Shown piece by piece: positions 3,059 through 19,953 of a DNA stretch of 64,000 bases (positions within the stretch are counted from its first letter, which is position 1; each line of letters starts with the position of its first letter). Source of the DNA: Escherichia phage tootiki. The stretch is taken from the sequence record MN850647.1; one strand, written 5' to 3'. The position numbers were made by a program, and so were the translations under genes. The notes under the pieces were generated by a model. That model did no database searches. It saw only the letters and a list, made by a program, of their open reading frames with translations, and was not told where the DNA came from.

Positions 3059-3342
3059 TACATTTTTCCTGCTCTTCTAAGTTCGTTGTAAGCAATTTCC
3101 TCTTTATACGACCTCTGAATTTCAAGAAATTGTCTCAATGATAATAAATCAGAGAATGTCATAGCAAAGAGTTGGTCAAGTGTTTCTTTACACCCTTCCA
3201 TACCATAAATAGCAAGCACAAATTTCATCTCGTCTGCTTCTTCATAGGTTGCCTCTACAGCAGCATCAGTTAGTGGTGTCTGTAGAGTGTTACCCATGTT
3301 TACTGAGAAGTTAGGCTTTTGAAAATGCTTGCTTCGAAAAAA
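3058..3342 (-). CDS. tail assembly chaperone frameshift extension (GT-like C-terminal part)
   Basis: ORF in -1 frame relative to 3300-3698, open from slippery site through to 3058; ends at tape-measure start. Confidence 0.5.
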
Positions 3343-3771: not shown

Positions 3772-4218
3772 TTAAACACTTGACGCTGGAATTGTAGAAG
3801 TGTAGTCTAACTTCTCACAACCAAAAATCCAAGTTTTAGAGTTCTGGTCACGACCAAGTTCAATCTGTGGTAACTCCTGCAACCAAGCGTTAATACCAGT
3901 TGCCAGAACAGAGCCTGATGGGTCGTAGATTACGAAGTTAGAAGAGATATCTTCTTCAAGTTCCATATTGTCTTGTTTAGCTTGAATTGCAGAAAGCATC
4001 TGGTTAGAGAGAGAAGTCTGCATTAACTCAATCTCAATAGTACCTGTCTTGTCTGCATTTCTTGTCAGAGCAACTTGACCACCTGCACCAACAACTGGTG
4101 TCACGAGTGGTGATGTTCTCTGTAGACGCAAGAATGAGTCTGGGGCAAAGCCTTCAATGGCAATACCATTCCAGCTACATACAACGTCTTTAGGGGAATA
4201 TTGCTGATACATAGCCAT
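3772..4218 (-). CDS. tail tube protein
   Basis: 148 aa ORF between 450 aa sheath-like gene and chaperone/tape measure; order typical of contractile tails. Confidence 0.5.
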   Translation of the reverse strand: MAMYQQYSPKDVVCSWNGIAIEGFAPDSFLRLQRTSPLVTPVVGAGGQVALTRNADKTGTIEIELMQTSLSNQMLSAIQAKQDNMELEEDISSNFVIYDPSGSVLATGINAWLQELPQIELGRDQNSKTWIFGCEKLDYTSTIPASSV

Positions 4219-4233
4219 TCCAATTTACCTCTA

Positions 4234-5586
4234 TTATTCGTAAGCCACTGTACCTTTCAAGTCAACATCCAAGATAGCCCCTGCTAAGATACCTGCGAAG
4301 GTAACATCTTTCAGGATACGTGCTTTCTTGTCTGCTAAAGCAACTTGAGAGGCTTTAGGAACATTAACTGTGTAAGATGACAGGAAGTTTCTGTTGACTG
4401 CTCTTTGCAGAGAGGTTTCAATGACTTGACGAATACGGGTAATACCAGTATCATCATAAGTAATCTTACCACCCTTCTGGTTAATTAGCAAGTCTCTCAG
4501 AGAAGTTTTCAGGTCTGATTCTAACCAGTCAACACCACGGACGATATCAATCCATTCCCCACCAGAAGTAATCCCTCTACGAACCACTGGAACACCACCA
4601 TCAAGGTCAATAAAGTTACAGTGACGTACATCTAAAGCAGACTTCTGAATACTTGTCAGAGGTCTCTGATTAGATGGTTGTAGAGAAGCTGCTACGCCAG
4701 TTAGCTGAGCATTACCCCAAGCAATTGAGCCTGCATCATATGGAGCACCATAAGCAATGTATGCCATCTCTGGATAATCTTCTGCTGCTGCGTGATGCCA
4801 CAAGCAAACTGTACGAGTGTACATATTCTTAGCAAGCTGTGCTGGAACATCATTTGCACTGGCTAATTCTGTACCTTGTAGGGCTGTTACATCGGAGTTA
4901 GCCGTAAAGAAGATTTTCTTACGAGCCTGAATCTCAGAAGCCATTGCTAAGACAAACTGTTGAGTTCTGTCTTCTGCTGCAATGAAATACCAGTCAGTAG
5001 AGTAAGCTTCGATAGCTGCCAGAGCAGTTGCTGCTGTATCAGCAGTTGTACTTGCAATATATACAGTCTGTGCTGTGGTTGTTACTTTCACAAAGTCATT
5101 ATCACCAGCTTTGGTAATAATCATTGTGGCAGAGCCATTGCTACCAGTTACATTCACAGAAACCTTATCTTTGATTGTTGGGTCAGCTTCAATCTGTGTT
5201 TTAAACTGTTGCAACACTACCTCAGCAGTGTCTGAATCTTGTGCTGTGTACTGGTATGGTTGAGAAATTCCACCGCCAACAGCTACAGTAATTGAGTAGT
5301 CTGTACTTTCGGTAACGGCATCAGGAATTGATACAGTGTACTGCATAGCGCGTCTACCGATATAAAGCTGAGTTACTTTAGGAGTCTGACTCCAAAGTTG
5401 TTTAGCAGCCTTATATGCAGCAGTATTCTCATCGAAATCTTCAGCAACTTCAGTTAAGGAAGTGTAACCACGCACTCTTTCTTCAAAGTTATCTGTTGAA
5501 GCTAAGAATAGTGGCAAACCAAAACCTTCTCTTGTAGTTCCTGCGGTGTTCAATGTAATATCTACATTAACAATTGGATTCCACAT
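4234..5586 (-). CDS. tail sheath protein
   Basis: 450 aa ORF directly upstream of tube-like gene; size and order as in P2/Mu-type contractile tails. Confidence 0.5.
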   Translation of the reverse strand: MWNPIVNVDITLNTAGTTREGFGLPLFLASTDNFEERVRGYTSLTEVAEDFDENTAAYKAAKQLWSQTPKVTQLYIGRRAMQYTVSIPDAVTESTDYSITVAVGGGISQPYQYTAQDSDTAEVVLQQFKTQIEADPTIKDKVSVNVTGSNGSATMIITKAGDNDFVKVTTTAQTVYIASTTADTAATALAAIEAYSTDWYFIAAEDRTQQFVLAMASEIQARKKIFFTANSDVTALQGTELASANDVPAQLAKNMYTRTVCLWHHAAAEDYPEMAYIAYGAPYDAGSIAWGNAQLTGVAASLQPSNQRPLTSIQKSALDVRHCNFIDLDGGVPVVRRGITSGGEWIDIVRGVDWLESDLKTSLRDLLINQKGGKITYDDTGITRIRQVIETSLQRAVNRNFLSSYTVNVPKASQVALADKKARILKDVTFAGILAGAILDVDLKGTVAYE

Positions 5587-12713: not shown

Positions 12714-14330
12714 TCAACGTCTAAGCCCCTCATATGGGTTTCCTCTCACTAAGTCTGTGTGAGCACCCATTGATGGTGGCTTGAATAATTTAACTTCGTT
12801 AAGACTGTTGAAAGCATCACTGGTAGCATCCACTTGGTCATCTTTAGTTTTACCATCACCACAAAAACCTTCAAGTTCTTGAAAGTAAGCTTCGTTCCAA
12901 CTGCCTCTCAAGACTTTTACAAGTCCAGCTTCAGAAGCAGCAGAAAATCCCGCAAAGCGGGTAACTTTATCTTTATTTGTTGGTTTAGCTCTTGCGCGAT
13001 AACCTTTCTCGGCAAGTTTCCTGATGAGGGATGTTGCATAGGATTTACCAGCAGCGCCTGGGTCTTGAGGGATAAAAATACCAGTTCGCTTACCGTCACT
13101 TTCAGCAGTCAAATTAATTTGTGTTTCGACTCCAGAGGGTCTATCTCTAAATCTTACTACATCAATGATATAATAGCAACCGTCTTTTTTAGATTTACCC
13201 ATCTTAACACCCGCTGTCCAGTCTGGGTTAGGGTTAATTTCAGATGGTAAAGTCGCTGCTAAGTCCCATGCTCTGACATCAAACACATCTTCTGGGAGTG
13301 AATCAACAATCTCACACCATTGTCTTTGCCAATAGTTTGAACCTTCTGCACGAGCCTTCCAGTTACCGAAACGAAGTCTTGCAACGTTTACAGGTGTGTT
13401 GTTTTCCAACTTACCACGATATTTAGGCTCTAAGAAGTCAAGAATTGGGTTATCATCAATCGTACCAGAGATGAAGGTGTATGTCTGAGGAATCTCAAGA
13501 GGGAACATTTCAAGAATCTTGTCTCTCTCCCAATCAGAAACCATCACACCATCATTCATAACATACCAACGAATACGACCACACTTCTCAGGGTCTGGGT
13601 AACCTTCTTCATCTAAGAATGGCTCTACCCAATCATAAATGAAGTGGTCTCTGTCTGGGTTCATAGAAATCTTCATGTATGAATCGCCTTCAGCACCAGA
13701 ACGTAGACGGGTCTGTAGGTATGAAATCTGTGAAGCAGAGAAGTGTGTACCTTCGTCAAAGTAGATAGCTGAGTATTCAATACCCTGATGACCTTCAGCG
13801 TGCTTTTCAAGTTCTAAGTAGGTGAACTTAATAGTTGCCCCAGAAGGGAACGTGATAGTCATCTTCTGCTCGTGAGGAACCCCACCAAACTTACCAAATA
13901 GTTTCTTTGCAGCAGGCCATAAACCACCTTGTAACTGTGTTGTATTTCGACGGAAATATACAGCATTATAGTTAGGGTCTTCAATAAACCTTAAAGAGTC
14001 CATTAACAATGCAGCAGTTTTACCAGCACCAGCAGCACCACCATAGAGTACCAAGTCAGCATTAGTGTTTAAAAAGACCTCTTGAGAACCCGGCTGAGGG
14101 GCTACATAGTTCTTATCAGTCATCAACTTAAAGATAAGGCGAACTTGGTCTGGTGTGTATCTTAATAAAGTCAGAATTTGAGTTGGAAGGAATTTAGAGG
14201 GGTCTTTACCGAATGATTTGATAATTTCTTTTACTTCATCAGAAAGCCCCAACTCTCCAGCTAGGACTTTCCTAACATCTTCCACTCGCTTCTGCTTAAC
14301 AGCATTTAAATCCATTAAGCGCCTCCGCAA
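12714..14330 (-). CDS. terminase large subunit
   Basis: 538 aa; Walker A LYGGAAGAGKT; C-terminal nuclease-like acidic residues. Confidence 0.9.
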   Translation of the reverse strand: MRRRLMDLNAVKQKRVEDVRKVLAGELGLSDEVKEIIKSFGKDPSKFLPTQILTLLRYTPDQVRLIFKLMTDKNYVAPQPGSQEVFLNTNADLVLYGGAAGAGKTAALLMDSLRFIEDPNYNAVYFRRNTTQLQGGLWPAAKKLFGKFGGVPHEQKMTITFPSGATIKFTYLELEKHAEGHQGIEYSAIYFDEGTHFSASQISYLQTRLRSGAEGDSYMKISMNPDRDHFIYDWVEPFLDEEGYPDPEKCGRIRWYVMNDGVMVSDWERDKILEMFPLEIPQTYTFISGTIDDNPILDFLEPKYRGKLENNTPVNVARLRFGNWKARAEGSNYWQRQWCEIVDSLPEDVFDVRAWDLAATLPSEINPNPDWTAGVKMGKSKKDGCYYIIDVVRFRDRPSGVETQINLTAESDGKRTGIFIPQDPGAAGKSYATSLIRKLAEKGYRARAKPTNKDKVTRFAGFSAASEAGLVKVLRGSWNEAYFQELEGFCGDGKTKDDQVDATSDAFNSLNEVKLFKPPSMGAHTDLVRGNPYEGLRR

Positions 14331-14759: not shown

Positions 14760-14835
14760 TGGAGAATCCGAAGGGACTCGAACCCTTATAAACCTGTTCT
14801 GCAGACAGGTACATATCCATTTCTGTCACGGATTC
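14760..14835 (-). tRNA. tRNA-Cys (anticodon GCA)
   Basis: hand-folded cloverleaf: acceptor GAATCCG/CGGATTC, anticodon loop CTGCAGA, T-arm AAGGG-TTCGAGT-CCCTT, CCA encoded. Confidence 0.7.
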
Positions 14836-14839
14836 AAAT

Positions 14840-14932
14840 TGGAGGAAGATACCAGACTTGAACTGGTACACCGATTTCTCAGCTACTGGCAGTTTAGCAA
14901 ACTGCTCCCTTACCTTTTAGGGTTAATCTTCC
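14840..14932 (-). tRNA. tRNA-Ser (anticodon GCT), class II
   Basis: acceptor GGAAGAT/ATCTTCC, anticodon loop TTGCTAA, long variable arm, T-arm ACCAG-TTCAAGT-CTGGT. Confidence 0.65.
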
Positions 14933-14933
14933 A

Positions 14934-15668
14934 TTATTTCTGTAATGCGTTCTTCATTTCTGGTGTTGCAATAGTGTCAATCACACCAGTTTTACAAGCA
15001 TCGTCAAACCAGTCTGGTAAGATACCTGCTAAGAACCCATTGATATTCGTTTTAAGGTACTCTGCAATAAGGGCAGCTTCTTCTTCAATCATCTGCACAA
15101 CTTCATCTGCATAAGCTGTAATCTTTGAAATACCTTCATTAATTTTACTGACAGCTTGGTTAGCTAAATCAGAAACAGTGTCAAGACCCTTATCAATAGC
15201 GTCTTGTAAGTCACTTAACACACCGTTAACACTGTCTAGTGTGCTGTTAATCATGTCAATAGCTTGCTGACCATACTCTGTAGCAACACCCATAATACCA
15301 CTAAATGGTGTACAACCAACTTGTTCTCCTGCTGCACCCATAACATTGGAGTATCCCTTTGCTACCTGCATACGTGATGAAAACTCATCAATAGACTTTT
15401 GACCGTAGTCTGTTAGGGTCTTAGTAGTCGCTGTAGTGCTTGTAAGGCTTGTTGTAAAGCTGTTTAGAAGGACTGTTGTAAGTCCAGCAGCAACAAGTTT
15501 CTCCTTCATTGTAGGGTCTGTTACAGAGCTAATAGAGCTTACAAGTGATGTAGAGGCAGCTACGGTTCCACCGAGAACTGCTGCACCAGTAATAAGTGGG
15601 TTAGAAAACCCTTTACCGGTTTTTAAGAGATTAAAAATCTCCTTACCTTGTTCTGTCATCTCTTTCAT
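14934..15668 (-). CDS. hypothetical Ala/Ser/Thr-rich protein
   Basis: ORF track start at 15731 overlaps tRNA-Phe; start moved to internal ATG at 15668 (MKEMTEQ). Confidence 0.4.
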   Translation of the reverse strand: MKEMTEQGKEIFNLLKTGKGFSNPLITGAAVLGGTVAASTSLVSSISSVTDPTMKEKLVAAGLTTVLLNSFTTSLTSTTATTKTLTDYGQKSIDEFSSRMQVAKGYSNVMGAAGEQVGCTPFSGIMGVATEYGQQAIDMINSTLDSVNGVLSDLQDAIDKGLDTVSDLANQAVSKINEGISKITAYADEVVQMIEEEAALIAEYLKTNINGFLAGILPDWFDDACKTGVIDTIATPEMKNALQK

Positions 15669-15686
15669 TAAGCACCTTTGAAATTG

Positions 15687-15761
15687 GTAGTCCAGTGGGA
15701 TTTGAACCCTCTTCTCATGTTTTTCAGACACGCGCTTTAACCATATAAGCTACTTGGACTA
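15687..15761 (-). tRNA. tRNA-Phe (anticodon GAA)
   Basis: acceptor TAGTCCA/TGGACTA, anticodon stem CGTGT/ACATG loop CTGAAAA, T-loop TTCAAAT; D-arm weak. Confidence 0.55.
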
Positions 15762-15765
15762 TAAA

Positions 15766-15842
15766 TTGGGGTGACCTACGGGATTTGAACCCGTATAGAC
15801 CATGTTCACAGCATGGGTCATTACCATTTATGATAAGGCCAC
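15766..15842 (-). tRNA. tRNA-His (anticodon GTG)
   Basis: acceptor GTGGCCT/AGGTCAC, D-stem TCAT/ATGA, anticodon loop CTGTGAA, discriminator C, CCA encoded. Confidence 0.7.
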
Positions 15843-15873
15843 ATTTAAGGACTCTCGTAAGAACCCTTAGAAG

Positions 15874-15949
15874 TGGCAGCGGCATAAGGATTTGAACCTT
15901 AATAGGACAGCTTCAGAGACTGCTGCATTGCCAGTTATGCTATACCGCT
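15874..15949 (-). tRNA. tRNA-Gln (anticodon CTG)
   Basis: acceptor AGCGGTA/TGCCGCT, D-stem GCAT/ATGC, anticodon loop CTCTGAA, discriminator G. Confidence 0.65.
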
Positions 15950-15954
15950 AAAAT

Positions 15955-16033
15955 TGGTACTCCATATCGGATTCGAACCGATACATAACACAGATTTTAA
16001 GTCTGGCCTCTCTGCCAATTGGAGTAATGGAGC
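15955..16033 (-). tRNA. tRNA with Leu-type anticodon TAA, class-I length
   Basis: acceptor GCTCCAT/ATGGAGT, T-arm ATCGG-TTCGAAT-CCGAT, anticodon loop CTTAAAA, discriminator A; no long variable arm. Confidence 0.45.
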
Positions 16034-16035
16034 AT

Positions 16036-16111
16036 TGGCGGGGGATGTTGGAATTGAACCAACTTCTTCGATTTCAAAGACCGAGGTTTTAACCTTGTAA
16101 ACTAATCCCCT
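16036..16111 (-). tRNA. tRNA-Gln (anticodon TTG)
   Basis: acceptor with A1-C72 mismatch, D-stem GTTT/AAAC, anticodon stem TCGGT/ATCGA loop CTTTGAA, discriminator G. Confidence 0.6.
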
Positions 16112-16119
16112 TTAAATCT

Positions 16120-16677
16120 TTACTTTCTCAGTGGATGAATAAAGAATGCCAACATAACTCTTTCCCTTGAGAATGCTCTTTCTTCTGGGACAACACTTTT
16201 TAGTTTCCATCCAATATAAATTCTCCAGTAAAACTGTTTACCAAAGACTTTAATTGATGGGATAAAAGCGAATAACCCCCAAGCATTACTGTTCCACATT
16301 AGGAGATAGCCAGTCTGATTATCTTCAGGGTCAGAACTTACGTTGATATTACCTTTCCACTTAGTAACATCTTTTACATCTCTTCCTAATACATGGTAAG
16401 AGAAGTTATAAGCTTTGTTTCTCCAGAGCCATCCAACTCTCTGCATGTAGACACCCAGTTTACCAATCTTTCTAATCTTAGCCCATCTTTTGACGTGGCC
16501 TTCGTCACCATCAATCGGGTTGTCATAGGTCTCCATCCATCTGAATCCAAAAGGCAGATGTCCCTTCTTCTCACTGTAGAATGGAACTACGAAAGGTGCT
16601 AAGATGACTGCTAGGGTTGCTGCAAATGGTTCTAGTAAAGCTAGGAAAATCCATGAAGCATACTTCAAATATCTCAT
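16120..16677 (-). CDS. hypothetical membrane protein
   Basis: 185 aa ORF with hydrophobic N-terminus, embedded in tRNA array. Confidence 0.45.
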   Translation of the reverse strand: MRYLKYASWIFLALLEPFAATLAVILAPFVVPFYSEKKGHLPFGFRWMETYDNPIDGDEGHVKRWAKIRKIGKLGVYMQRVGWLWRNKAYNFSYHVLGRDVKDVTKWKGNINVSSDPEDNQTGYLLMWNSNAWGLFAFIPSIKVFGKQFYWRIYIGWKLKSVVPEERAFSRERVMLAFFIHPLRK

Positions 16678-16696
16678 CTAAATAGCCTCTTAAAAT

Positions 16697-16774
16697 TGGT
16701 GTTCCAAGACGGATTCGAACCGTCACTAATACAAGGTTTGAGCTTGCATCCTCTGCCAATTGGGATACTGGAAC
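16697..16774 (-). tRNA. tRNA with Leu-type anticodon CAA, class-I length
   Basis: acceptor GTTCCAG/TTGGAAC, T-arm GACGG-TTCGAAT-CCGTC, anticodon stem GCAAG/CTTGT loop CTCAAAC, discriminator A. Confidence 0.45.
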
Positions 16775-16775
16775 A

Positions 16776-16850
16776 TGGTACTCACTAAAGGACTTGAACC
16801 TTTTTCTTCATCTTGTAAGGGTGGTGTTTTACCATATAAACTAAGCGAGT
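16776..16850 (-). tRNA. tRNA-like, anticodon position reads TAC (Val) but anticodon stem poorly paired
   Basis: good acceptor, D-arm GTTT/AAAC and T-arm AAAGG-TTCAAGT-CCTTT; anticodon stem only 3 of 5 pairs. Confidence 0.4.
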
Positions 16851-16945
16851 GTGAAAGAGGTCTTAAGTTGTGCCGCTAACTCAACTCCGTGGAATTTGTT
16901 ACGGTCTTCAGTTGACACCAGCGGTCTTTCACTTGACCTCTGAAT

Positions 16946-17022
16946 TGGTGCTGCTCACAGGACTCGAACCTGCATTTCCATCCTTACAAGGGATGTGTAA
17001 TAGCCAATTATACGAAAGCAGC
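16946..17022 (-). tRNA. tRNA-Thr (anticodon TGT)
   Basis: anticodon stem CATCC/GGATG loop CTTGTAA, T-arm GCAGG-TTCGAGT-CCTGT, discriminator A. Confidence 0.7.
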
Positions 17023-17029
17023 ATTAATT

Positions 17030-17104
17030 TGGAGCATCCAGAGGGAATCGAACCCTCAACCTCAGTTTGGAAGACTGTAATTTTCCCGTTTAAACTATGG
17101 ATGC
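17030..17104 (-). tRNA. tRNA-Gly (anticodon TCC)
   Basis: acceptor GCATCCA/TGGATGC, anticodon loop CTTCCAA, T-arm GAGGG-TTCGATT-CCCTC, discriminator T. Confidence 0.65.
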
Positions 17105-17110
17105 ACTAAT

Positions 17111-17186
17111 TGGTGGAGAAGCAGGGAATTGAACCCTGTACTTAAGTTTGCAAAACTTATGTTTTAACCATGTAAACTACATCCCC
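17111..17186 (-). tRNA. tRNA-Ala (anticodon TGC)
   Basis: D-stem GTTT/AAAC, anticodon stem TAAGT/ACTTA loop TTTGCAA, T-arm CAGGG-TTCAATT-CCCTG, discriminator A. Confidence 0.7.
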
Positions 17187-17192
17187 AATATC

Positions 17193-17268
17193 TGGTACAG
17201 GTGGAGGGAATTGAACCCATCGTCTTACTGATTAAGAGTCAGCCGCATAACCATTTTGCTACACCTGC
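17193..17268 (-). tRNA. tRNA-Lys (anticodon CTT)
   Basis: acceptor GCAGGTG/CACCTGT, anticodon loop CTCTTAA; T-stem ATGGG/CCCTC imperfect, same as tRNA-Lys(TTT). Confidence 0.55.
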
Positions 17269-17275
17269 ATTAATT

Positions 17276-17353
17276 TGGTAGGAGACAAGGGATTCGAACC
17301 CTCAAACATCTCGTTCTAAGCGAGATAGGTTTACCAATTACCGTCAATCTCCC
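17276..17353 (-). tRNA. tRNA with Leu-type anticodon TAG, class-I length
   Basis: anticodon stem ATCTCG/CGAGAT perfect, loop CTTAGAA, T-arm GAGGG-TTCGAAT-CCCTT, discriminator A; no long variable arm. Confidence 0.5.
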
Positions 17354-17432
17354 ATTAAATCTTTTTAGAGAACTTCTAAGAACCTAAGCAACAAGGTTCC
17401 ACAACAAGCTGTAATAACCTTAGAAGCCCTCT

Positions 17433-17452
17433 AAAAAGACCTAAAAAGGTCT
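17433..17452 (-). terminator. intrinsic terminator-like hairpin inside tRNA array
   Basis: minus strand AGACC-TTTTTA-GGTCT followed by TTTT. Confidence 0.4.
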
Positions 17453-17611
17453 TTGCATAGTCTTGTTTAATCCGGTGACTATAACCTTTGGAGAGCTTGA
17501 TATTATCTCTTCTCCGTGACACCTACTAGGTGCTTTACTGTGCATGTACGACAATACACTAGGGATACCAAAGCAACATCCGAATGAAGCTTGGCTTTAA
17601 ATCTTATTAGG

Positions 17612-17699
17612 CGGTAAGTAAAGGAGTCGAACCCTCACCGTATCTCTACAGTGGCAACTGTTTTCAAGACAGTTTGGCTACCATTAGCCGCTACCTACC
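17612..17699 (-). tRNA. tRNA-Ser (anticodon TGA), class II
   Basis: acceptor GGTAGGT/ACTTACC, anticodon stem ACTGT/ACAGT loop CTTGAAA, 20 nt variable arm, discriminator G. Confidence 0.7.
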
Positions 17700-17717
17700 C
17701 CTAATAAGACTTTGGCA

Positions 17718-17795
17718 TGGGACGGAGGAGTTGAACCACTTTGAAACGGTTTTGGAGGCCGTTGCTCATGCCTTAGAGTCTTAACATCGTCCCAC
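17718..17795 (-). tRNA. tRNA-like; possible Trp (anticodon CCA) with enlarged D-loop
   Basis: acceptor GTGGGAC/GTCCCAT plus G73 and encoded CCA, T-loop TTCAACT; core does not fold canonically. Confidence 0.35.
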
Positions 17796-17932
17796 ACTAT
17801 AATTCGAAGCTTACCGTATTTTCACAACACTGTAAAGCCCCTTCTCAGATTATTTACATGTTCTGGAAAACATGAGATACAGACCACCTCCTTACAGGAA
17901 GACCCGCTTAGGTCGTCTAAGTAATCTGCTAA

Positions 17933-18280
17933 CTAATACTTTGCATGTCTTACCCTATGGCAATTTGAACATAGCAAAACACATTTGTCAAGTTCATCTT
18001 TTAGTTCTTGAGAGAACTTAAGGCTTTTCCTATGACCAATGTTAAAATCTTTATCTGAAGGATTCAAATGATGGAAGTCATACACTGCTGGATGATATTT
18101 CTTACCACAATCATGACAAACCCCACCTTTGTACTCAATAGCTGAGAGTTTAAGTGCTCTTTGTCTTTCTATGGTTTGCTCATTAACACACTTTTTACAG
18201 TATGAATGAGTTCTCCTACCATCTTTCATGTAGAAATCATTTTCATCCTTGCTAAGTTTGCACCTAATACAAGTTTTCAT
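17933..18280 (-). CDS. HNH endonuclease
   Basis: Cys pairs CIRCK and CKKC, HH-LNPSD-N motif, CSNCH; start moved to MKTCIRC because track start overlaps a tRNA. Confidence 0.7.
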   Translation of the reverse strand: MKTCIRCKLSKDENDFYMKDGRRTHSYCKKCVNEQTIERQRALKLSAIEYKGGVCHDCGKKYHPAVYDFHHLNPSDKDFNIGHRKSLKFSQELKDELDKCVLLCSNCHRVRHAKY

Positions 18281-18294
18281 GATTTCTCCAAAAT

Positions 18295-18376
18295 TGGTCG
18301 AGGCGGCAGGACTCGAACCCGCATACTCCACTTACTCGGTTAACGTCTGTTTAGAAGACAGATGAGATACGCCCCG
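18295..18376 (-). tRNA. tRNA-like; possible Arg (anticodon TCT) with atypical geometry
   Basis: acceptor CGGGGCG/CGCCTCG, T-arm GCGGG-TTCGAGT-CCTGC, CCA encoded; perfect hairpin TCTGT-CTTCTAA-ACAGA but no room for a D-arm. Confidence 0.35.
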
Positions 18377-18624
18377 TAATTATCTTTAAAGACTCTCTTA
18401 GAAAGCCCTTAAAGATGCCCACCTTATTAATCATACCGTGGGCTAGTACGCCAAATTCTTTGATGAGGGATTGGAAGACCTCACTGGTGTTTAGCCTATC
18501 AAGCTACTGCCAGAAAAACATTGTCGTTTGCATTTATTTTAAATTTGCAAAATAGACGCTACGCAACGAAAACTAAGGTTACTATAAAGTAGTCACATCT
18601 CAGTGTCAACAACTTTATTGAAAG

Positions 18625-18699
18625 TGGTTGTAGGTGAGGGTATCGAACCCTCTTCTAACGGTTATCAGCCGTTTGCATTACCATTTATGCTAACCCACA
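18625..18699 (-). tRNA. tRNA-Ile (anticodon GAT)
   Basis: D-stem GCAT/ATGC, anticodon stem AACGG/CCGTT loop CTGATAA, T-arm GAGGG-TTCGATA-CCCTC, discriminator A. Confidence 0.7.
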
Positions 18700-18701
18700 A
18701 T

Positions 18702-18778
18702 TGGAGGTTCAGGTGGGATTCAAACCCACATTCATAGGGCTTATGAAACCCTTGCATTACCTTATCTGCGACTGAACC
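18702..18778 (-). tRNA. tRNA-Met (anticodon CAT)
   Basis: acceptor GGTTCAG/CTGAACC, anticodon stem AAGGG/GCCCT loop TTCATAA, T-arm GTGGG-TTTGAAT-CCCAC. Confidence 0.65.
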
Positions 18779-18783
18779 ATTTT

Positions 18784-18859
18784 TGGTAGAAGTGGAGGGA
18801 TTCGAACCCATCGCCTGTCAGATTAAAAGTCTGCCGCATCACCATTCTGCTACACTTCC
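18784..18859 (-). tRNA. tRNA-Lys (anticodon TTT)
   Basis: acceptor GGAAGTG/CACTTCT, anticodon loop CTTTTAA, discriminator A; T-stem ATGGG/CCCTC imperfect. Confidence 0.55.
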
Positions 18860-19010
18860 ATTAAATCATCTTTGCAGTAACCTACGCAGACCTTGCTAAA
18901 GGGTCTGTAGAGTCATTTCATATTAAGCTAATCTAGAATCATACTAAGGAAATTCATCGGCACTCATGGGACGACATAATTAGCCACATAAGCTACTGCA
19001 AAGATAATTA

Positions 19011-19141
19011 CCAGACCGTTGTTTATCATCTTAAGTGCTACCATTACACCAACTCGACCTCTGCCGAGTGAAGGAATCGAACCTTCGCCTTTTCTTTACC
19101 GAGAAATAGATTGTTTAAGTTTTGCTGTAAACGGTCTTCTG
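19011..19141 (-). ncRNA. structured spacer module a: terminal inverted repeat enclosing a tRNA-like T-arm and D-arm-like segment
   Basis: minus strand CAGAAGACCG...CGGTCTGG ends pair; internal GAAGG-TTCGATT-CCTTC and AGTTGGTGTAATGGTAGCAC; no anticodon arm. Confidence 0.4.
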
Positions 19142-19154
19142 TAAATTTGTTGAG

Positions 19155-19230
19155 CCAGACCAAGTTTTAAATTTTTCAAAATTGAATTGGCTTGAAAATA
19201 TCATACATTCTTGCTGTATTTGGTCTTCTG
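19155..19230 (-). repeat. spacer module b (CCAGACCA...TGGTCTTCTG inverted-repeat unit)
   Basis: same terminal inverted repeat as module a. Confidence 0.4.
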
Positions 19231-19291
19231 CTCCTTTAAAGAATACTCGTAAGAACTCTTTAAGGGAGGGGCTAAATAGCCCTCTCAAAAT

Positions 19292-19368
19292 TGGCGGCTA
19301 CGATGAGACTTGAACTCAAATCATCTCCCGTGACAGGGGAGTATTTTCTCCAGTTAAACTACATAGCC
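19292..19368 (-). tRNA. tRNA-Asp (anticodon GTC)
   Basis: anticodon stem CTCCC/GGGAG loop CTGTCAC, acceptor GGCTATG/CGTAGCC, discriminator G. Confidence 0.7.
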
Positions 19369-19373
19369 TTTAT

Positions 19374-19461
19374 TGGTGTGCCGTGTAGGAGTCGAACCTA
19401 CCGAGTCTCAATGACAAGGGATTTACAGTCCCCACCGCTACCATCTACGGGATAACGACAC
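19374..19461 (-). tRNA. tRNA-Tyr (anticodon GTA), class II
   Basis: T-arm GTAGG-TTCGACT-CCTAC, anticodon loop CTGTAAA, about 15 nt variable arm, discriminator A. Confidence 0.7.
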
Positions 19462-19469
19462 ATTTAATT

Positions 19470-19546
19470 TGGCGGTTAGTCAGGGATTCGAACCCTGTGC
19501 CATTCGCTTAACAGGCGACCGCACATACCTTATGTGCTTCCTAACC
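19470..19546 (-). tRNA. tRNA-Asn (anticodon GTT)
   Basis: D-stem GCAC/GTGC, anticodon loop CTGTTAA, T-arm CAGGG-TTCGAAT-CCCTG, discriminator G. Confidence 0.65.
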
Positions 19547-19557
19547 TTAATACATTG

Positions 19558-19618
19558 CCAGACCGTGTTTTTTCTTTTATCCGCAAAAAAGTATTTTGTT
19601 GCTGAATACGGTCTTCTG
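19558..19618 (-). repeat. spacer module c (CCAGACCG...CGGTCTTCTG inverted-repeat unit)
   Basis: same terminal inverted repeat; internal GCAA/TTGC hairpin. Confidence 0.4.
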
Positions 19619-19624
19619 CAAAAT

Positions 19625-19701
19625 TGGAGGCGGGTGCAGGAGTCGAACCTGCCGATACCATGCTAATGAGACATGTGAGACGCCCTTTCTCTATACCCGC
19701 A
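19625..19701 (-). tRNA. tRNA-Met (anticodon CAT), second copy with 1-72 mismatch
   Basis: T-arm GCAGG-TTCGACT-CCTGC, D-stem GAGA/TCTC, anticodon stem CATGT/GCATG loop CTCATTA; T1-C72 unpaired. Confidence 0.55.
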
Positions 19702-19712
19702 ATTCTCAATGA

Positions 19713-19784
19713 CCAGACCAAATATCTTCTTTGTCCGATTTCGTGTCAGATGAGTAGATTAAGTTTGCTGTAATTGGTCTTCTG
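19713..19784 (-). repeat. spacer module d (CCAGACCA...TGGTCTTCTG inverted-repeat unit)
   Basis: same terminal inverted repeat as modules a-c. Confidence 0.4.
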
Positions 19785-19791
19785 TCAAAAC

Positions 19792-19869
19792 TGGCGTTCC
19801 AGAAGGGATTTGAACCCTCAGATATCCACTTTGAAAGAGTGGTGACTTTACCATTTTGTCTACTGGAAC
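19792..19869 (-). tRNA. tRNA-Glu (anticodon TTC)
   Basis: acceptor GTTCCAG/CTGGAAC, anticodon stem CCACT/AGTGG loop CTTTCAA, discriminator G. Confidence 0.7.
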
Positions 19870-19876
19870 ATTAATT

Positions 19877-19953
19877 TGGTCTCTGTTGGAGGACTTGAAC
19901 CTCCGGCCTTACCGCCCCAAACGGAATGCTCTACCAAGCTGAGCTAAACAGAG
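19877..19953 (-). tRNA. tRNA-Pro (anticodon TGG)
   Basis: acceptor CTCTGTT/AACAGAG, D-stem GCTC/GAGC, anticodon loop TTTGGGG, T-arm GGAGG-TTCAAGT-CCTCC. Confidence 0.65.

Follow-up and report, generated by a model that had tools for sequence, protein, structure and literature searches.

Type I tRNA-Leu genes with a short variable region in the tRNA array of a Felix O1-like Escherichia phage

We analysed a stretch of 64,000 nucleotides from Escherichia phage tootiki (MN850647.1; hereafter the window) and focused on three tRNA-Leu genes with the anticodons UAA, CAA and UAG, which lie within its tRNA gene array. All three have a variable region of only 5–7 nt and lack the long variable arm of class II tRNAs. 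The three genes are real, selected tRNA genes. We consider it probable that they are functional type I tRNA-Leu, which would be charged by the host's leucyl-tRNA synthetase (LeuRS) and would read UUA/UUG and CUA/CUN codons. The short build of tRNA-Leu is common in phages and in some bacteria; it is a known kind of tRNA, the rarity of which had been overstated.

Gene structure, conservation and covariation

The three genes were located with ARAGORN and with the Rfam model RF00005 at the following positions:

15955..16033, minus strand: tRNA-Leu(UAA), 79 nt including the encoded CCA; ARAGORN and Rfam (47.5 bits)
16697..16774, minus strand: tRNA-Leu(CAA), 78 nt including the encoded CCA; ARAGORN and Rfam (44.0 bits)
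17276..17353, minus strand: tRNA-Leu(UAG), 78 nt including the encoded CCA; ARAGORN and Rfam (44.5 bits)

The Rfam matches were full-length (model positions 1–71) with E-values of about 1e-8 to 1e-7, the gathering score of the model being 29 bits. Both programs agreed exactly with the anticodons and coordinates that the initial annotation had derived by hand folding, and ARAGORN gave no alternative anticodon or boundary and no long arm. As read from the ARAGORN drawings and by manual segmentation, the anticodon loops are CUUAAAA (UAA), CUCAAAC (CAA) and CUUAGAA (UAG). Each tRNA has a 7-bp acceptor stem, A73 followed by the encoded CCA, and a T-arm consisting of a 5-bp stem and the loop UUCGAAU; the claim of A73 and good T-arms was thus borne out. 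The variable region, put at 4–7 nt by hand folding, measured 7 nt in Leu(UAA) (GUUAUGU), 6 nt in Leu(CAA) (AUUAGU) and 5 nt in Leu(UAG) (UGUUU), so that the first two slightly exceed the canonical class I length of 4–5 nt. All three genes have a Leu anticodon and a variable loop of at least five nucleotides including nucleotide 48, which is the definition of type I tRNA-Leu (PMC6614811).

The class II feature, a variable arm that exceeds 10 nt and folds into a stem-loop, was absent from the ARAGORN drawings, the covariance-model alignment and the free-energy folding of the three genes. With a total length of 78–79 nt including CCA there is no space for a hidden variable arm. The Ser and Tyr genes of the same array, which had been described as class II, are indeed long:

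14840..14932, minus strand: tRNA-Ser(GCU), 93 nt, class II comparator; ARAGORN and Rfam (46.2 bits)
17610..17699, minus strand: tRNA-Ser(UGA), 90 nt, class II comparator; ARAGORN and Rfam (33.2 bits)
19374..19461, minus strand: tRNA-Tyr(GUA), 88 nt, class II comparator; ARAGORN

The stems of the Leu tRNAs contain a few non-canonical pairs. In Leu(UAA) the acceptor stem starts with G1-U72, the D-arm is CUCC-AAUUGGCAG-AGAG with a C13-A22 mismatch, and a C27-U43 mismatch tops the anticodon stem. The D-arm of Leu(CAA) is UCCC-AAUUGGCAG-AGGA, again with C13-A22, and Leu(UAG) contains G1-U72 and U7-G66. In the Rfam alignment of Leu(UAG) the boundaries were off by one and a deletion was forced in the acceptor stem. 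We rejected this shifted register, in which the discriminator would be U: in the ARAGORN register the acceptor stem has 7 bp and is followed by A73 and the array-wide CCA, and it is this register that the homologues conserve. Free-energy folding returned the cloverleaf for Leu(CAA) and Leu(UAG); the z-scores, from -1.5 to -2.2, are a weak test alone, and we based the argument for the fold on covariation.

The window belongs to Felixounavirus. Its tRNA region is 98.6% identical to that of Escherichia phage bumzen and 95% identical to that of Salmonella phage Felix O1, and it matched 315 phage records, mostly of Felixounavirus and other Ounavirinae, many of them annotated with 'tRNA-Leu (x3)'. 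The Leu genes themselves are ordinary: hundreds of Felix O1-like genomes carry them with the annotation tRNA-Leu. We read the arrays of Felix O1, KhF2, ASO1A, Shy, Citrobacter phage Moogle and Pectobacterium phage Arno18, and in addition the unrelated arrays of Acinetobacter phage phiAbaA1 and the T5-like phage BF23. In all eight arrays every tRNA-Leu was 77–79 nt long, as against 86–93 nt for Ser and Tyr, and the first six phages each had all three Leu genes in the short form. The alignment with host and related phage tRNA-Leu, which the initial annotation had proposed as a check, thus showed a short build throughout the lineage, compared with variable regions of 13–15 nt in E. coli. Leu(UAA) was identical in Felix O1, KhF2 and ASO1A and had two substitutions in Moogle; Leu(CAA) was identical in Felix O1, Moogle and ASO1A, with one substitution in the variable region in Shy and KhF2. 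Homologues of Leu(UAG) were found in Felix O1, Shy, KhF2, ASO1A, Arno18, phiAbaA1 and BF23.

When 12 Leu homologues were aligned, 94.6% of the cells of the cloverleaf were paired and 17 of the 20 pairs had changes on both sides. In the controls, slid registers reached 37–56% pairing, and none of 500 shuffles attained the observed values.

The relatives also differed from the window in several details. The anticodon stem of Leu(UAG) occurs in two alleles within Felixounavirus, one fully paired (UCUCG/CGAGA; window, Felix O1 and ASO1A) and one with a U30-U40 mismatch (CCAUC/GUUGG; Shy and KhF2). The same mismatch was seen in BF23 and Arno18, which suggests that tRNA segments may have been exchanged among phage groups. 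In Moogle the array position of Leu(UAG) is taken by an unrelated 77-nt short tRNA-Leu(UAG) that is actinobacterial-like (UAGCCCAAUUGGAAGAGGC; 4996–5072 of the examined stretch), pointing to a probable gene replacement inside a conserved array. The tRNA-Leu(UAA) of Shy (3902–3978 of the examined stretch) is 77 nt long, as the 3' half of its D-stem lacks 2 nt (AGAGGCC in place of AGAGAGGCC); either the allele is damaged or the sequence contains an error.

Leucine identity, codon meaning and proposed charging

The determinants of E. coli LeuRS (EcLeuRS) are A73, U8:A14, the A15-U48 Levitt pair, G18G19, A20a and the tertiary pairs that link the D-loop to the T-loop (PMC9976931). Explicitly not among them are the anticodon and the long variable arm (PMC9976931; PMC6614811), and E. 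coli tRNA-Leu without the arm is still active according to a review (PMC9976931). We followed up the identity-element analysis suggested in the initial annotation and found all published EcLeuRS elements in the three phage genes. U8, A14, A15 and U48, the latter being the last variable nucleotide, are present in all three; the bases were read directly, and the tertiary pairs between them are predicted. The D-loops, AAUUGGCAG and AAUUGGUAA, are 9 nt long and have the length and register of the E. coli AAUYGGUAG, with G18G19 and A20a kept. The common T-loop provides U54, U55, C56 and A58.

The E. coli genes leuZ (UAA), leuX (CAA) and leuW (UAG) share the anticodons, A73, the core bases and U48 with the phage genes. 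Their D-loops (AAUCGGUAG/AAUUGGUAG) are likewise 9 nt long, and a 3-bp D-stem followed by an N13-A22 mismatch is common to both sets. The sole systematic difference is the variable region, with 5–7 nt in the phage genes and a stem-loop of 13–15 nt in the host genes (leuZ 15, leuX 13, leuW 13). In addition, the host genes have G9 where phage Leu(UAA) and Leu(CAA) have A9, and outside the arm leuZ and leuX are only 54–55% identical to these two.

The meaning of the codons was followed in the phage proteins NrdA, NrdB and NrdD, which were aligned with their E. coli homologues, and the host residue facing each phage codon was scored. UUA, UUG and CUA faced a host Leu at 28 of 69 positions (41%), Leu being the commonest partner, compared with 35% for the other phage Leu codons and a background of 8.7%. 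By this alignment UUA, UUG and CUA appear to mean Leu, with no sign of reassignment. In the long open reading frames (ORFs) of the window, UUA, UUG and CUA together make up 49% of the Leu codons and CUG only 17%. CUG accounts for about half of all Leu codons in E. coli. Such usage accords with the common view of phage tRNAs as suppliers for codons that are rare in the host.

From these data we propose that the Leu tRNAs would be transcribed within the Felix O1-type tRNA array and then matured by host enzymes, after which the LeuRS of E. coli or Salmonella would attach leucine. The anticodons UAA and CAA would decode UUA/UUG and the anticodon UAG would decode CUA/CUN, in an AT-rich phage that appears to use UUA, UUG and CUA far more than its host. 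Charging without a long arm is plausible: what enterobacterial LeuRS reads is A73 together with the D/T-loop core, all of which the phage genes retain. That Leu is short and Ser and Tyr are not would, in the simplest reading, reflect permissiveness, LeuRS dispensing with the arm. For bacterial TyrRS the size of the arm is presumed to be a major identity element, as it is for SerRS. The role of arm size for SerRS has been described (PMC9976931).

Several points weigh against this proposal. The minimum-energy fold of Leu(UAA) is not a cloverleaf. The D-arm of Leu(UAG) is irregular, with one U more before A14 than in BF23, which leads either to a 3-nt connector (U-G-A) and a CGGU/ACCU stem, as drawn by ARAGORN, or to a C11-C24 mismatch. 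As to charging, Fan et al. 2019 reported that EcLeuRS failed to leucylate a transcript of the type I tRNA-Leu(CAA) of Streptomyces coelicolor, and described the enzyme as charging type II tRNA-Leu only (PMC6614811). An earlier study from the same laboratory found that the leucine-specific domain of EcLeuRS prefers large variable-arm loops. The homologous tRNA-Leu(UAG) of BF23, once its anticodon is changed to CUA, is annotated by the depositors as an 'effective amber suppressor' (AJ604530) and is therefore functional in E. coli translation, but the annotation is silent on the amino acid that the suppressor inserts. The variable loop of the Streptomyces tRNA is ACAGC, so that it has C48 and no A15-U48 pair (PMC6614811); judged from the sequences, U48 in the phage genes may reconcile the conflict. 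For Aquifex, deletion of U48 abolished charging, and deletion of the arm chiefly lowered the affinity. Gene structure, conservation, covariation, retention of the identity elements, the leucine meaning of the codons and the wide occurrence were established directly; leucylation and translational use are what we infer, and it is mainly for the leucylation by host LeuRS that we hold the proposal with good rather than higher confidence.

Among the alternatives, an artefact of the hand folding, i.e. other boundaries or anticodons or an overlooked long arm, is extremely unlikely. The one-nucleotide shift in the Rfam alignment of Leu(UAG) and the fold of Leu(UAA) mentioned above could be taken in its favour. 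However, two independent tRNA finders concur on the boundaries, the anticodons and a variable region of 5–7 nt, the genes are too short for an arm, and covariation favours the cloverleaf register over all slid ones; the suspicion of mis-folding raised in the initial annotation could thus be dismissed. It had also been suggested there that the tRNAs might be reassigned, so that tRNAs with Leu anticodons would carry another amino acid. The absence of the arm that is the hallmark of bacterial tRNA-Leu and the failure of EcLeuRS on one heterologous type I tRNA-Leu speak for such mischarging. Against this, UUA, UUG and CUA are matched with Leu no less often than the remaining Leu codons, no element of the Leu identity set is missing, and neither G3-U70, the Ala determinant, nor the long arm for SerRS is present. 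Moreover, the type II tRNA-Leu of the host read the same codons during infection, so that decoding would become ambiguous. We regard reassignment as very unlikely.

It is also conceivable, though in our judgement unlikely, that the three tRNAs are poor substrates or non-substrates of host LeuRS. They would then need a phage helper or a modified LeuRS, or would serve as decoys for tRNA-targeting nucleases, or would be decaying relics. The statement that EcLeuRS charges type II tRNA-Leu only is in line with this, as are the known ability of phage tRNAs to neutralise tRNA-cleaving defences, damaged-looking alleles such as the 77-nt Leu(UAA) of Shy, and the presence of a tRNA-like element without a D-arm in the array of the window. 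Strong conservation, compensatory changes in the stems and the retention of A73, U48 and the D-loop across distant phages stand against it, being the prediction of selection for aminoacylation and use on the ribosome. The amber suppressor activity annotated for the BF23 homologue and the activity of arm-deleted E. coli tRNA-Leu argue in the same direction. Taken together, charging of the phage tRNA-Leu by host LeuRS appears to account best for these observations.

Occurrence and origin of the short build

We scanned sequence collections for short tRNA-Leu genes; the figures from all these scans cover the matches listed only and are neither absolute counts nor true ratios. In IMG/VR the pattern combined a Leu-type D-loop, limited to AATTGG, with a YAR anticodon and a T-loop at a short distance; ARAGORN confirmed at least 167 tRNA-Leu genes no longer than 80 nt, in at least 119 loci. 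Pattern sets limited to AATTGG miss AATCGG-type and other D-loops. Among the matches listed, the Ser and Tyr genes in the same loci were nearly all 81–97 nt long. An isotype-neutral viral sample was obtained with the consensus T-arm plus CCA as anchor; it is small and non-random and consists of the first matches listed. In this sample short tRNA-Leu (80 nt or less) made up 16 of 43 in new loci and 27 of 71 when re-found loci were included (about 38%), compared with 0 of 41 for Ser and 0 of 15 for Tyr. The short Leu genes listed had A73 in 24 of 27 cases, the other three being truncated-CCA artefacts, and U48 in 26 of 27, as compared with 49% A73 and 24% U48 in the other class I tRNAs of the sample. 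Over all matches listed, U48 was found in 162 of 166 viral and 133 of 135 bacterial short Leu genes. The tRNA-Leu of phage T4 is 87 nt long.

When bacterial genomes were scanned with the Leu pattern, at least about 110 matches were tRNA-Leu genes of 74–79 nt. At least 77 loci contained a single tRNA and therefore look like ordinary chromosomal genes; among the matches listed these came mostly from Actinomycetota and had the D-arm UAGCCCAAUUGGCAGAGGC. At least about 23 of the 120 bacterial loci listed were dense tRNA arrays. One such array, in Cylindrospermum sp. NIES-4074 (AP018269.1; 2790–3266 of the examined stretch), comprises 26 tRNAs in 8 kb, and all five of its Leu isoacceptors (UAG, GAG, CAG, UAA and CAA) are short, with 74–78 nt.

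In the library of papers that we searched there was no account of phage tRNA-Leu architecture, nor of short-armed phage tRNA-Leu in general. Almost all bacterial tRNA-Leu are said to be type II, and the type I tRNA-Leu(CAA) of S. coelicolor is charged by its own LeuRS (PMC6614811). A tRNA-Leu(UAG) with a short variable loop, encoded in a mycobacterial cluster, is mentioned in a single sentence (PMC6582537), and for M. tuberculosis long loops are implied for only three tRNA-Leu species (PMC11541572). The initial annotation had considered unusual short Leu isoacceptors. The isoacceptors are real and short, but given the share of about 38% among the matches listed in the neutral sample, the 77-nt gene of BF23/T5, the Actinomycetota and S. 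coelicolor (PMC6614811) they are far less exceptional than was supposed there.

The closest comparison within phages is the tRNA-Leu(UAG) of BF23/T5 (AJ604530, gene tRNAL1), which is 77 nt long, with 5 nt (GUUUU) in the variable region, and likewise has A73 and an encoded CCA. Its T-arm is identical to that of Leu(UAG) in the window, with 75.7% identity ungapped over the gene, and the BF23 array, like that of the window, contains long Ser and Tyr genes. BF23 differs in belonging to the Demerecviridae, in its regular D-stem without the extra U, and in the U30-U40 mismatch, which is absent from the window allele; its tRNA also differs in being backed by experiment as a suppressor. Within 'RNAX', a stable RNA with no function known to the depositors, ARAGORN called a 74-nt 'tRNA-Ser(ACU)' without a long arm (14152–14225 of the examined stretch). 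The BF23 array has in addition several annotated 'tRNA-like RNAs with unknown functions'.

Among cellular systems, the tRNA-Leu(CAA) of S. coelicolor resembles the phage genes as a tRNA-Leu of the bacterial world with a short (5-nt) variable loop; it uses U8:A14 as an identity element and needs at least five variable nucleotides including nucleotide 48 (PMC6614811). The D-arm of its actinobacterial relatives, UAGCCCAAUUGGCAGAGGC, is nearly identical to that of the phage genes. In contrast to the phage genes with U48 and 5–7 nt, it is a cellular gene with C48, served by a LeuRS with an adapted leucine-specific domain. The mycobacterial tRNA-Leu(UAG) shares the short loop and lies in a dense, probably mobile array beside a long-armed chromosomal isoacceptor, but unlike the phage genes it is located in a bacterial genome (PMC6582537). 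Animal mitochondrial type I tRNA-Leu also have a short variable loop, with A73 and A14 as identity elements (PMC9976931). They belong to organelles, have a LeuRS dedicated to them and are relaxed in structure, and their likeness to the phage genes is by description only. The E. coli and Salmonella hosts have type II tRNA-Leu only.

As to the origin of the short arm, we see about an even chance that its source was a mobile pool of type I tRNA-Leu genes, shared by phages, bacterial arrays and Actinomycetota, and not a loss from a host tRNA-Leu; such a descent is compatible with charging by host LeuRS. With the variable region excluded, phage Leu(UAA) and Leu(CAA) matched actinobacterial type I genes at 50/69 and 45–46/69 positions (D-arm 15–18/20), and host leuZ and leuX at only 38/69 and 37/69 (D-arm 11/20), although these are pairwise identities and not a phylogeny, taken from short sequences under convergent constraints. 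The different, actinobacterial-like short Leu(UAG) of Moogle at the same array position points the same way, as do, among the matches listed, bacterial tRNA arrays that hold short Leu genes only, such as the five in Cylindrospermum sp. NIES-4074. On the other side, Leu(UAG) has a second D-arm type (UG-ACGG...) that is seemingly nearer to type II tRNA-Leu. On balance the sequences hint at a circulating type I lineage rather than a recent arm deletion from host genes.

A rather unlikely possibility is that the loss of the arm was itself an adaptation, in that an armless tRNA-Leu would be immune to nuclease attack on the variable loop, a way out that would be feasible for Leu only, since enterobacterial LeuRS, in contrast to SerRS and TyrRS, would dispense with the arm. 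This would account for about 38% of the viral tRNA-Leu, and none of the Ser and Tyr, being short. We know of no defence system that attacks tRNA-Leu in such a manner. Septu and retron-Eco7 do cleave the variable loop of class II tRNA-Tyr (PMC13096335). If the adaptation were true, EcLeuRS would have to charge armless tRNA-Leu of the U48 type efficiently, in contradiction to the type II-only statement.

The textbook shortcut that tRNA-Leu of the bacterial world is class II needs correction, as roughly one third of the sampled viral tRNA-Leu are short among the matches listed. Short tRNA-Leu also occur in bacterial arrays and on many chromosomes of Actinomycetota, and short Ser or Tyr genes were absent from the matches listed in the neutral viral sample. 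Type I was the only build of tRNA-Leu in the regions that we read from E. coli and Salmonella phages of the Felix O1 and T5/BF23 groups. There is thus a conflict between an EcLeuRS that reportedly accepts type II only and E. coli phages with type I tRNA-Leu that bear A15-U48. Resolving it would sharpen the rules of leucine identity, improve the annotation of such genes, which pipelines flag as 'tRNA-OTHER', and help the design of compact orthogonal or suppressor tRNAs.

Other members of the array

The array and further elements in and around it are located as follows:

14760..19953, minus strand: tRNA gene array including the three Leu genes; 24 ARAGORN calls, nearly all with an encoded CCA
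20100-20072 and 20009-19980: promoter-like sites upstream of the array; consensus match only
14597-14580: terminator-like site downstream of the array; consensus match only
16120-16677, minus strand: ORF of 185 aa within the array, between Gln(UUG) and Leu(CAA)
18298-18376, minus strand: tRNA-like element; Rfam 33.4 bits, no ARAGORN call

In the tRNA-like element an acceptor stem, an anticodon arm with UCU (Arg) and a T-arm are present, and CCA is encoded. A 7-nt linker replaces the D-arm, and about 24 nt separate the anticodon stem from the T-stem. It occupies the position at which the relatives Shy and Moogle have a normal 77-nt tRNA-Arg(UCU), and is unalignable with their genes except in the loops.

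The ORF at 16120-16677 corresponds to ORF48 of Felix O1, a 'phage conserved protein'. Its DNA is 67–72% identical to hypothetical genes of T4-like phages of Klebsiella, Enterobacter, Cronobacter and Escherichia (KP27, RB43, VR5 and others).

A tRNA-Arg(ACG) is located just downstream of tRNA-Leu(CAA) in Felix O1, Shy (3163–3238 of the examined stretch), KhF2 and ASO1A. It is absent from the corresponding site of the window (16678–16696), and a blast search with it against the window returned fragments of T-loops only. The tRNA-His is flagged as a pseudogene both in the Shy record and in Felix O1.

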